From contig CAVSUE010000001.1 of assembly GCA_963731265.1 (NCBI GenBank), forward strand, positions 800,001-864,000: DNA of 64,000 bases, written 5' to 3'. The translations under genes were made by a program, and so were the position numbers. Shown piece after piece: positions 55,083 to 56,713 of the stretch. The notes beneath the pieces are model-generated. The model saw nothing but the letters and a program-made list of their open reading frames with translations, searched no databases and was not told where the DNA came from. This DNA comes from an uncultured Verrucomicrobiae bacterium (GTDB lineage: Bacteria; Chlamydiota; Chlamydiia; Chlamydiales; Rhabdochlamydiaceae). How positions within the stretch are numbered: position 1 is the first letter of the stretch; each line of letters starts with the position of its first letter.

Positions 55083-55156
55083 GGGGTATTAGCTCAGTTG
55101 GTTAGAGCGCCACGTTGACATCGTGGAGGTCAGCTGTTCGAGTCAGCTATATCCCA
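55083..55156 (+). tRNA. tRNA-Val(GAC)
   Basis: Acceptor GGGGTAT/ATATCCC, anticodon arm CCACG-TTGACAT-CGTGG, TTCGA loop; CCA not encoded. Confidence 0.95.
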
Positions 55157-55165
55157 TATTTTTTA

Positions 55166-56713
55166 ATGGAAATTTCTACAGATCCACATCTTTTTCTCAA
55201 TCAAACCGCTTCCGTCCTTTTGGCCGCTGCTGTCGTTGAGCTTTTTCCTCAGGCCCAACTCCAGGGAGGCTGCGGAACCTCAAAATACTTTTACTATGAT
55301 TTTGTCTTGCCCTTCCCTTGCACACCCGATTCTTTGCCGCTCATTGAAGAACGGATGCGGCTGATCGCTAGAGAAAAGAGGGAAGTCCGCTCCACAGAAA
55401 TGATGCCCTCCAATGCAGCTGCTCTCATGCGGCATCGCCGCCAATATCTTCTTGCAGAGCAGCTCTTGCTTCTCCGGCAATCGACTGTGCCTATGGTGCA
55501 AATAGGAGATTTTACGATTCCCTGCTCCGATTCCATTGCAGAAAATTTTGTTGTCCCTCTGTTAAAAATCCTTGAATACTTCGATTTAGAAAAAAAGAGC
55601 ATCAGGATCATCGGGGCAGCCGCCCAAGACAAAGACACCCTGAAAAAGATCGGCAAGGAACCCACTCCCGGATACCGTTCCCATCTGAAATTAGCCGCCG
55701 ACATGGCTCTATTTTGTCCAGCTGAGGAAGAAGGCCTTTGGATGTGGCGACCAAAAGGGGAGCAGTTGAGACATCTTCTTCTCACTCATTGGCGGGAAGA
55801 GATGGTTAGGAAAAATTTTAATTTAATTTCGCAAAGCGGGCAAAATTTTCTCCTCTCTCACTGGAAATATTTTTCCCGTTTTCATACTTCCAAACTCGCA
55901 GAACTCGGTTGGGCCGCGAACCCTGAATTCAACAATCTTAGCGATGGCTTGCTCTCTCCTAAGGCTTGCTTTGGCGACAGGGCACATCTCTTCTGTACCG
56001 AGGAAAAACTTTTAGAAGAATGTATTTCGTCCTTGCGTTTCATCCTCAAAATCCCTAAAATTCTGGGTTTTGAGTTCGAAATTGTCTTATCGATTTCGAG
56101 CCAAGGCGCTCAAAAAGCGAAGGCGAAAAAGGGCGCCATTCTCCGGCAAGCGCTGGAAGAAAATGGACTTGACTATAGCGTCGAAAAGCAGTATCGATTC
56201 GGAACATTAGCGAGCATCGATATCCGTTTTACCGATTCTTTAGAGAGGAAATGGACTGGCCCTTCCGTGAGCTTTCCGGACATTGCGCATCCGCCGGACA
56301 AAAGTTGTGTTCTGGCGATTTCGCTGTTTGGATCGCTGGAAAGAATATGCGCCTTGCTGCTTGAGAAAAATGAAGGGTGGCTTCCTTTTTGGTTAGCGCC
56401 GGAACAGGTGCGGATTTTGACGGCAAGCCATCAATTGGGCGCTTTTGCGAAAGAAATCGAAGAGGCTTTGAGGACCCAGGGCATTCGAATGACGATAGAG
56501 GCCGGAGAAGAAAAGTTAAAAACTCGTCTCTACCAGGCCGTTGTTGAAAAAGTCCCTTATGTCCTACTGCTCGGCGAAATAGAAGAGAAGACAAAGACGA
56601 TCGCCTTACGAGTTTATGGAGAATGTGAAGAGCAGAGATTATCCTTAGGGGAGCTCTCCGCGAGACTTCGAAAGATAGGAATGGTGAGTGGAAACACTGA
56701 ATTTAAGAATTAA
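55166..56713 (+). CDS. Threonyl-tRNA synthetase-like protein with degenerate active sites
   Basis: FYYDF, AHLFC, GSLERI, PFWLAPEQV and KVPYVLLLG place it in the ThrRS family; key catalytic motifs are missing; start moved out of the tRNA to ATG 55166. Confidence 0.85.
   Translation: MEISTDPHLFLNQTASVLLAAAVVELFPQAQLQGGCGTSKYFYYDFVLPFPCTPDSLPLIEERMRLIAREKREVRSTEMMPSNAAALMRHRRQYLLAEQLLLLRQSTVPMVQIGDFTIPCSDSIAENFVVPLLKILEYFDLEKKSIRIIGAAAQDKDTLKKIGKEPTPGYRSHLKLAADMALFCPAEEEGLWMWRPKGEQLRHLLLTHWREEMVRKNFNLISQSGQNFLLSHWKYFSRFHTSKLAELGWAANPEFNNLSDGLLSPKACFGDRAHLFCTEEKLLEECISSLRFILKIPKILGFEFEIVLSISSQGAQKAKAKKGAILRQALEENGLDYSVEKQYRFGTLASIDIRFTDSLERKWTGPSVSFPDIAHPPDKSCVLAISLFGSLERICALLLEKNEGWLPFWLAPEQVRILTASHQLGAFAKEIEEALRTQGIRMTIEAGEEKLKTRLYQAVVEKVPYVLLLGEIEEKTKTIALRVYGECEEQRLSLGELSARLRKIGMVSGNTEFKN

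Follow-up and report, generated by a model that had tools for sequence, protein, structure and literature searches.

The window analysed in this study, a stretch of 64,000 nucleotides (nt) from an uncultured chlamydial bacterium, carries at positions 55166..56713 of the forward strand an open reading frame (ORF) for a paralogue of threonyl-tRNA synthetase (ThrRS). The protein, here called P0001, has lost the conserved active site of the enzyme. It is probably a pseudo-synthetase derived from ThrRS that is selected as a protein for a non-catalytic binding role, and whose gene contains an embedded promoter of infC, the downstream gene for IF3. In this reading, the paralogue descends from ThrRS, still folds as ThrRS, and is kept by purifying selection in many environmental chlamydiae. 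It holds the thrS slot of the widespread gene order thrS-infC-rpmI-rplT-pheS, and an intact thrS elsewhere in the genome would do the charging. A second role would lie at the DNA level, where codons ~281-309 may carry a sigma-70-type promoter (56033-56061) directed toward infC. A preliminary description of this DNA had proposed a catalytically dead ThrRS paralogue, which the residue losses across 43 family members bear out; the embedded promoter-like element is a finding newly added here to that pseudo-enzyme.

The paralogue retains the ThrRS fold and lacks the catalytic residues

The ThrRS motifs were compared in an alignment of 43 members of the paralogue family and 29 canonical chlamydial ThrRS proteins, including that of the same genome. 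The motif names (KPMNCP, DDAH, MIHRA and others) are those customary for ThrRS, and the positions were taken from the alignment and the canonical copy. Both Pfam and the alignment showed that the TGS domain is missing from the paralogue. In the N2 (editing-domain-like) part, residues 1-165 (55166..55660), the editing motif HTSAH of canonical ThrRS corresponds to QTASV (Q13, V17), and the position of the editing Lys is N83, an Asn shared by 41/43 family members. In the degenerate class II catalytic core, residues 166-405 (55661..56380, delimited like N2 by alignment to canonical ThrRS), a deletion of 36 residues takes out the KPMNCP zinc-cysteine segment together with the SGHW...Y segment. Of the family members, 41/43 lack the segment that bears the His and Tyr of SGHW...Y, and the QCGT..Q.D strand is substituted in the family. 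Motif 2 reads ANPE in place of HRHE, with N252 at the position of the motif-2 Arg, and MIHRA is replaced by VLAIS, with A384 at the position of the zinc His. The retained parts are DRAHLFC, GSLER (motif 3) and the anticodon-binding domain (class IIa HGTP type, residues 406-505, 56381..56680). All features within the ORF are given on the forward strand. The preliminary description had listed the same changes by comparison with the Escherichia coli enzyme, namely the absence of TGS, QTASV in the editing motif, the missing zinc-cysteine segment, ANPE in motif 2 and LAIS at the zinc-His site, with AHLFC, GSLER and the anticodon-binding domain kept. Each was confirmed against the HTSAH, HRHE and MIHRA of the genome's own canonical copy, the family alignment or Pfam.

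These losses extend across the family. The zinc Cys, the motif-2 Arg, the MIHRA zinc His and the second editing His were each found in 0/43 paralogues and in 29/29 canonical proteins. The three editing His residues (HxxxH and CxxxH) occurred in 4/43, 0/43 and 3/43 family members. The first zinc His (DDAH), which is H274 in P0001, is present in 29/43 paralogues compared with 29/29 canonical proteins, and the motif-3 Arg in 39/43 compared with 29/29. R272, found in 26/43 members, replaces the second Asp of QDD and is, like N83, a new residue in the old pocket. Longer family members of 567-583 aa retain more of the core and are equally dead. N2 was the most conserved domain (mean column identity 0.542) outside the nucleotide block described below. 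Without a TGS domain, editing and zinc sites and a motif-2 Arg, the protein could neither activate nor edit threonine, and ThrRS-type catalysis by the paralogue is excluded as far as sequence allows.

Pfam recognised the class IIa anticodon-binding domain PF03129 alone (residues 414-503, E 2.3e-11). The family model TIGR00418 (threonine--tRNA ligase) scored 174.8 bits, under its cut-off of 383.65, and a phmmer search of the PDB matched E. coli ThrRS (1qf6) at E 9.2e-25. An AlphaFold2 model, built with the 43 family members, had a predicted local distance difference test score (pLDDT) of 90.8 and a predicted template modelling score (pTM) of 0.89. It shows the ThrRS fold without the TGS domain, and its best Foldseek match was 1qf6_A (E 9.2e-41, query TM-score 0.67). 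Matches in the ESM Atlas were limited to chlamydial 'hypothetical protein' clusters and ThrRS clusters. The paralogue thus has the fold of a threonine--tRNA ligase and falls short in its family score, its zinc ligands, its motif-2 Arg and its TGS domain and editing site. It shows what marks a pseudo-synthetase: a fold that is kept, catalytic residues that are lost, purifying selection, and an active copy in the same genome.

A canonical thrS is present and the paralogue is under purifying selection

The preliminary description supposed that a canonical thrS lies elsewhere in the genome. We found it on contig 2 (C2:183698-185365; 642 aa, 660.4 bits) with all motifs intact. A canonical thrS was also found in 40/41 related genomes, the sole miss being a 56% complete assembly.

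Selection was estimated by the pairwise Nei-Gojobori method (NG86) on codon alignments from the 16 genomes with both genes, 15 from the window's genus and one, G020, from a sister genus. More distant pairs were saturated, and the values that follow are for the three same-genus pairs with the least saturation. The ratio of nonsynonymous to synonymous divergence (dN/dS, omega) of the paralogue was 0.238 for G000-G003 (dS 0.115), 0.174 for G004-G001 (dS 0.579) and 0.150 for G015-G010 (dS 1.08), whereas that of canonical thrS was 0.063, 0.041 and 0.040, respectively. The omega of the paralogue was alike in all three domains. In a second genus (g25), it was 0.15-0.23 (dS 0.11-0.34), and copies devoid of the anticodon-binding domain are among those covered. 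The paralogue evolves at ~4x the rate of canonical thrS, yet far from neutrally. These results indicate that the gene is maintained by selection and is not in neutral decay (omega 0.15-0.24 compared with 0.04-0.06 for canonical thrS). The preliminary description had named frameshifted orthologues and a dN/dS near 1 as signs to the contrary. Broken copies do occur in a minority (1/18 same-genus genomes and several anticodon-binding domains), but omega is far below 1. Between G000 and G003, dS was 0.115 in the paralogue and 0.418 in canonical thrS; this unequal divergence may reflect recombination at one locus.

A promoter-like block is conserved inside the coding sequence

The most conserved protein stretch of the family, ECISSLQFILKIPKILGFEFE, lies in a region whose conservation sits at the DNA level. 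Among 15 same-genus genes, synonymous codon identity was 0.81-0.89 over codons 276-310 and mostly 0.35-0.5 elsewhere; the only other clear rise was at the 3' end of the paralogue, where infC starts. In the four more diverged of six pairs, the dS of the block (codons 278-310) was 0.05-0.22 compared with 0.88-1.94 in the three domains, and in the remaining two pairs it was 0 and 0.12 compared with 0.09-0.68. The same-genus alignment contains a near-invariant stretch of ~90 nt at 56006-56092, inside the core at about codons 281-309. Its central part recurs in families f1, f12, f22, f23 and f30, despite a protein identity of ~30-40%. As the block is conserved as DNA, ECISSLQFILKIPKILGFEFE should not be taken for an active site.

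The block is bipartite, with an invariant ATTTCTTCC-TTGCAA-TTCAT followed by a variable spacer and TAAAAT. In the window, the -35-like hexamer TTGCGT is at 56033..56038, formed by the TTG codon of Leu290 and the next codon, and the -10-like hexamer TAAAAT 17 nt further on, at 56056..56061. Among 56 distinct sequences, a set chosen by nucleotide pattern, the first hexamer was TTGCAA in 36, TTGCAT in 10, TTGCGT in 6 and others in 4. Independently of that pattern, TTGCA was present in 43/43 loci chosen by peptide match. The spacer measured 17 nt in 53/56 sequences and was less conserved than the hexamers. The second hexamer fitted TAnnnT in 54/56 (TAAAAT 40, TAAGAT 4, TAAAGT 3, TACAAT 3, TAGAAT 2, TAATAT 1, TACACT 1). 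These variants alter the encoded residues, yet T1, A2 and T6 stay constant. The exact 14-mer TCCTTGCANTTCAT, which misses the window's own copy (TTGCGT), was found in 53/151 genomes, not always at the infC locus, and its reversed control in 0/151. In the G016 pseudogene, the block (TTGCAT, 18 nt, TAAAAT) is intact despite two single-base insertions that destroy the frame.

When 59 distinct segments of 130 nt were folded jointly with RNAalifold, both strands came out as an open chain, with no shared RNA structure, and an Rfam search at E <= 10 over 55000-57900 returned the tRNA match only and nothing in the block. The block has two sigma-70-type hexamers at a spacing within 16-18 nt, conserved beyond coding need. 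From its hexamers, spacing and conservation, it is most likely a sigma-70-type promoter aimed at infC, ~620 nt ahead of the infC start. An embedded promoter of this kind would account for the strongest conservation in the protein family. A loose search (TTGnnn-16..18-TAnnnT within 150 nt past QDDAH) found the pattern in 0/11 outgroup thrS genes adjoining infC and in 3/63 other outgroup thrS genes; it placed only 2 chlamydial canonical loci, which are unusable as a control. The 0/11 result suggests that the element is particular to the paralogue family.

Further stretches at and around these loci may be recorded here. Two loci of family f20 (L122 and L123), which lack the paralogue, share a conserved GGGATTTC.ATTGCTTTTCTTTT...CTCTAAGAT ~140 nt upstream of infC. 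It reads TTGCTT, 17 nt, TAAGAT, has a faint likeness to the paralogue block, and is possibly the infC promoter of those species. In G028, where 240 nt stand in place of the paralogue, this spacer holds TTGCAC, 18 nt, TAATCT, and the 14-mer match of that genome sits on another contig. In the window, an inverted repeat TCGAAAT ... ATTTCGA (56073-56105) is located just past the -10-like hexamer. The window's sequence by itself folds there, but the second arm of the repeat is variable within the genus.

Organization and possible expression of the locus

The ORF runs from ATG at 55166 to the stop at 56711-56713 (515 aa plus stop) with 0 internal stops; its identity rests on the Pfam, NCBIfam, phmmer, AlphaFold2 and Foldseek results. 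It is preceded on the same strand by tRNA-Val (anticodon GAC, 55083..55156; ARAGORN, and Rfam RF00005 at 66.8 bits), with a gap of 9 nt (55157-55165). The upstream neighbours of tRNA-Val are nadB and, on the opposite strand, mnmM. The predicted GTG start of infC at 56688, chosen by tblastn conservation of the IF3 N-terminus, falls within the frame of the paralogue, giving an overlap of 26 nt, and an AGGA at 56677-56680 lies inside the ORF. Downstream on the forward strand are infC itself (56688..57230; TIGR00168, 214.8 bits), rpmI (57236..57433; TIGR00001, 86.2 bits) and rplT (57461..57817; TIGR01032, 144.2 bits), and pheS follows rplT (57862..58884; TIGR00468, 327.4 bits). The preliminary description gave an uninterrupted ORF of 515 aa, 9 nt past tRNA-Val and overlapping infC, with which the ORF, ARAGORN and Rfam agree. 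Its coordinates were right overall, although the start it gave, 55083, is that of tRNA-Val.

A consensus scan found a promoter-like site upstream of tRNA-Val (TTGATG, 18 nt, TATGAT; 55026..55055, forward strand; 9/12 matches). By this consensus match, it is a candidate promoter of a transcript with tRNA-Val and the paralogue. Start codons were chosen mechanically as the first in frame; in 47/49 distinct loci, drawn from several families, this codon lies 0-26 nt past the 3' end of tRNA-Val. The spacers between tRNA and start are pyrimidine-rich and have no Shine-Dalgarno sequence. This arrangement suggests that, if the tRNA is cut from a common transcript, the paralogue mRNA would be leaderless or nearly so, with a 5' end made by tRNA processing.

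Passages of one report (PMC8138138) state that IF3 discriminates against leaderless mRNAs. The locus could then be an IF3 feedback device, a doubtful idea at present. Once the 3' end of tRNA-Val had been processed, little or no leader would remain on the paralogue mRNA. Since IF3 discriminates against such mRNAs, a shortage of IF3 would raise translation of the paralogue, and the ribosomes that terminate there would reach the overlapping start of infC. A second route to infC, uncoupled from this one, would be given by the internal promoter. The level of the pseudo-ThrRS, possibly paired with the live ThrRS, would be inverse to that of IF3.

Distribution and decay of the paralogue

Orthologues next to infC were collected, as the preliminary description had envisaged. 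The order tRNA-Val, paralogue, infC was found in 20/20 loci of the window's genus and two sister genera, and also in single genomes of families f22 and f23. The locus search with a 9-row alignment covered loci with the ECISSL motif. An exhaustive search of representatives returned 321 family clusters (50% identity) at E <= 1e-30. By our reading of the matches listed (150 of 368), at least 42/151 genomes have a paralogue-type match.

Where the sources name these proteins, the names are 'threonyl-tRNA synthetase', 'threonine--tRNA ligase 2', 'hypothetical protein' or 'His/Gly/Thr/Pro-type tRNA ligase C-terminal domain-containing protein'. Their hosts carry the labels Rhabdochlamydiaceae, Chlamydiae or Verrucomicrobia, the last of which is probably mistaken.

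Most family members keep the anticodon-binding domain. In three loci of genus g25 that have lost it (L078, L094 and L098), the final ~30 nt ahead of infC are still conserved, which presumably reflects the ribosome-binding site and start of infC. Outside the family, the ESM Atlas holds a cluster of a 472-aa 'threonine--tRNA ligase' with tRNA_SAD and a class II core, commonest in Lentisphaerota. Neither TGS nor an anticodon-binding domain is among its listed Pfam families, and short ThrRS-like proteins may thus exist in another PVC phylum.

Origin of the paralogue

In 12/80 outgroup loci from several phyla, including that of the sole Planctomycetota genome, thrS lies directly upstream of infC (300 nt flank). 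This adjacency indicates that the paralogue occupies the usual slot of thrS. In a quick C20 tree, all 18 paralogues formed one clade (support 100) and the 17 chlamydial canonical copies another (100). A branch of 1.5 leads to the paralogues, which lie outside all canonical ThrRS. The chlamydial canonical clade had Thermodesulfobacteriota as its sister (99), rather than the single Planctomycetota sequence. Choosing the outgroup by likeness to the chlamydial enzyme biases the placement, and the long branches make it unsafe; the kinship with Thermodesulfobacteriota is only a lead for horizontal transfer. In -fast LG+F+G4 trees (39 rows x 594 columns), a constraint uniting paralogues with chlamydial canonical copies in a single clade cost 40.1 lnL and was not rejected (p-AU 0.067). 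As the joint clade was not rejected, duplication within the chlamydiae and displacement by an acquired thrS are both compatible with the data.

Possible roles of the protein

The part of the paralogue that is always retained is N2 plus the core. In the favoured reading, the protein would act by binding through this body, for which the candidate surfaces are the class II dimer surface, paired with itself or with ThrRS, and the cleft for the tRNA acceptor arm. A non-catalytic binding role of the N2-core body is most likely. Repeated loss of the anticodon-binding domain, with N2 and the core still under selection, argues against binding of the anticodon arm as the core role. The preliminary description had proposed a retained pseudo-enzyme, and this stands in general, as the protein is dead, selected and accompanied by a canonical thrS elsewhere. 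The four roles it offered (RNA binding, ribosome association, operon control, and heterodimer formation with the active ThrRS) were not told apart, and operon control gained an unforeseen form in the promoter-like DNA block within the coding sequence.

A complex of paralogue residues 166-515 with residues 240-642 of the canonical ThrRS was modelled. The interface score ipSAE was 0.77 compared with 0.00 for the best control, a mark reached by 116/157 solved complexes and 2/215 mismatched pairs. The runs agreed in >=91% of contacts, the partner pLDDT was >=82, and the chains took the class II dimer arrangement. In the model, the two chains meet through their motif-1 regions, and the near-invariant W194 and P196 are part of this contact. 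Because ThrRS homodimers have been solved, the pass may reflect memory of, or likeness to, that interface, and because one pair was modelled, the heterodimer and the homodimer are not told apart.

Several observations weigh against a selected binding protein with an embedded infC promoter. The paralogue was not found in 26/26 genomes of family f20 (small, Chlamydiaceae-like, 1.0-1.4 Mb), where the matches were only canonical ThrRS and anticodon-binding domains of other synthetases. In G028 (family f5, L121 1257-1497), it is deleted from an otherwise intact order of nadB, tRNA-Val and infC, with 240 nt instead. It is therefore dispensable in the most reduced lineages. The G016 copy contains 8 stops (1/18 same-genus genomes); a split copy in G013 was left out of this count because the assembly also breaks infC and canonical thrS. 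The anticodon-binding domain is cleanly deleted in G008, G020 and G089, and in genus g25 it was lost independently in three ways, by a frameshift (L078), by a stop with further lesions (L094) and by deletions (L098), although N2 and the core of these g25 copies still have an omega of 0.17-0.20. With regard to expression, a search of sequencing runs for this stretch listed no RNA run, the best DNA runs containing 0.23 of its words. The window's -35-like hexamer TTGCGT matches TTGACA at 3/6 positions, a consensus scan did not call the block a promoter, and the invariant stretch of 20 nt, ATTTCTTCCTTGCAATTCAT, exceeds the length that a -35 element needs. The window's paralogue starts without a Shine-Dalgarno sequence, 9 nt after the tRNA. 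Finally, conservation of the residues at the modelled interface does not exceed that in the remainder of the core (0.459 compared with 0.482, Mann-Whitney p 0.57).

Some of these observations would fit an ORF that persists only as operon scaffolding. It would lie between tRNA-Val and infC as the carrier of a promoter and would stay translated to prevent polarity or to supply ribosomes to infC, with a protein that has no biochemical role. No other part of the gene is as conserved as the promoter-like block, the frame overlaps the infC start by 26 nt and contains the infC ribosome-binding site, losses have repeatedly struck the anticodon-binding domain and, in reduced genomes, the whole gene, and the conserved active site is gone. 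Under this explanation, an omega below 1 would reflect selection against misfolded or toxic products. However, an omega of 0.15-0.24 over ~500 codons and in every domain means amino-acid constraint beyond the need for an open frame, and the family has near-invariant residues of its own (N83, W194, D357 and W363). Moreover, ORFs that end ~300 nt before infC still show an omega of 0.17-0.20 in N2 and the core, so coupling to infC cannot be the constraint there, and we regard scaffolding as unlikely. The complex model would rather fit a dead subunit that pairs specifically with a live ThrRS subunit at the class II interface, including W194 and P196. It would modulate charging or stability, much as other synthetase paralogues act as regulatory subunits. 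In a cyanobacterium, duplicated ThrRS copies are reported to form mixed oligomers (PMC4787780, summarised in the review PMC9437257). But the single pair modelled may echo the solved ThrRS homodimers, the interface residues are not specially conserved, and lineages without the paralogue have a working canonical ThrRS; such a heterodimer is unlikely as the specific role.

An enzyme that uses its class II core on a different substrate, or its N2 pocket with a new specificity, would explain why E392 (42/43), R393 of motif 3 (39/43), D271 (39/43) and His274 (29/43) are kept and why N83 (41/43) and R272 (26/43) are conserved as new pocket residues. Class II synthetases require the motif-2 Arg for ATP binding. 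This residue is absent in 43/43 family members, the His/Tyr segment of SGHW...Y is deleted in 41/43 and the QCGT..Q.D strand is replaced, which makes an enzyme very improbable. That the gene is a slowly decaying pseudogene without a function of its own is scarcely credible, although the broken G016 copy, the broken anticodon-binding domains and the loss in reduced genomes would agree with it. Intact frames of ~500 codons occur across many families at saturated dS, omega is far below 1, the family comprises 321 clusters, and the fold is predicted with high confidence. These considerations lead us to favour the pseudo-synthetase with a binding role and an embedded infC promoter.

Comparison with known systems

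Synthetase derivatives without catalysis are known for few families, and the present family is large and spans many chlamydial families. A full-text literature search, which left out supplements and did not use the name 'threonine--tRNA ligase 2', returned no report of a chlamydial or bacterial dead ThrRS. Nor is one described in the passages on ThrRS and Chlamydia of two reviews on synthetase paralogues, of which the first names T2 and ThrRS-L under ThrRS and the second is silent on chlamydiae. The automatic names given to the paralogue mislead reconstructions of metabolism and of the translation system. The gene offers a clean natural case in which one coding sequence is under constraint as protein and as DNA at once, and the block is a concrete candidate for driving infC-rpmI-rplT transcription in environmental chlamydiae.

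The paralogue is similar to bacterial ThrRS (E. coli 1qf6, Staphylococcus aureus 1nyq) in its architecture and fold of N2, class II core and anticodon-binding domain, in motif 3 and the DxxH stretch, and in the thrS position upstream of infC. It differs in lacking TGS, HxxxH, the zinc Cys, the MIHRA His and the motif-2 Arg, in core deletions of 36 and 12 residues, in scoring under the TIGR00418 cut-off, and in evolving ~4x faster than the real thrS of its genome. Non-catalytic synthetase paralogues include HisZ, a HisRS-like regulatory subunit, and mitoribosomal mL39 has the fold of the ThrRS N-terminal part. As in these proteins, a synthetase fold has outlasted aminoacylation, presumably for binding. 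Unlike HisZ, most members of the family retain the anticodon-binding domain, and unlike mL39, the paralogue lacks TGS and retains the catalytic core. A partner enzyme or an association with the ribosome would be hypothetical for the paralogue.

The cyanobacterial T2 and the eukaryotic ThrRS-L/TARSL2 are, like the paralogue, second ThrRS-derived genes beside a housekeeping one, but passages of PMC9437257 describe them as still able to aminoacylate, whereas the paralogue is without the catalytic residues in 43/43 members. For E. coli, passages of PMC6511841 state that two promoters within thrS, P0 and P0', drive transcription of infC. The arrangement proposed here is alike in that a promoter of infC-rpmI-rplT would lie within an upstream thrS-type coding sequence. 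It differs in that the promoter activity is predicted, a dead paralogue serves as the host gene, and nucleotide conservation of the element extends across chlamydial families.

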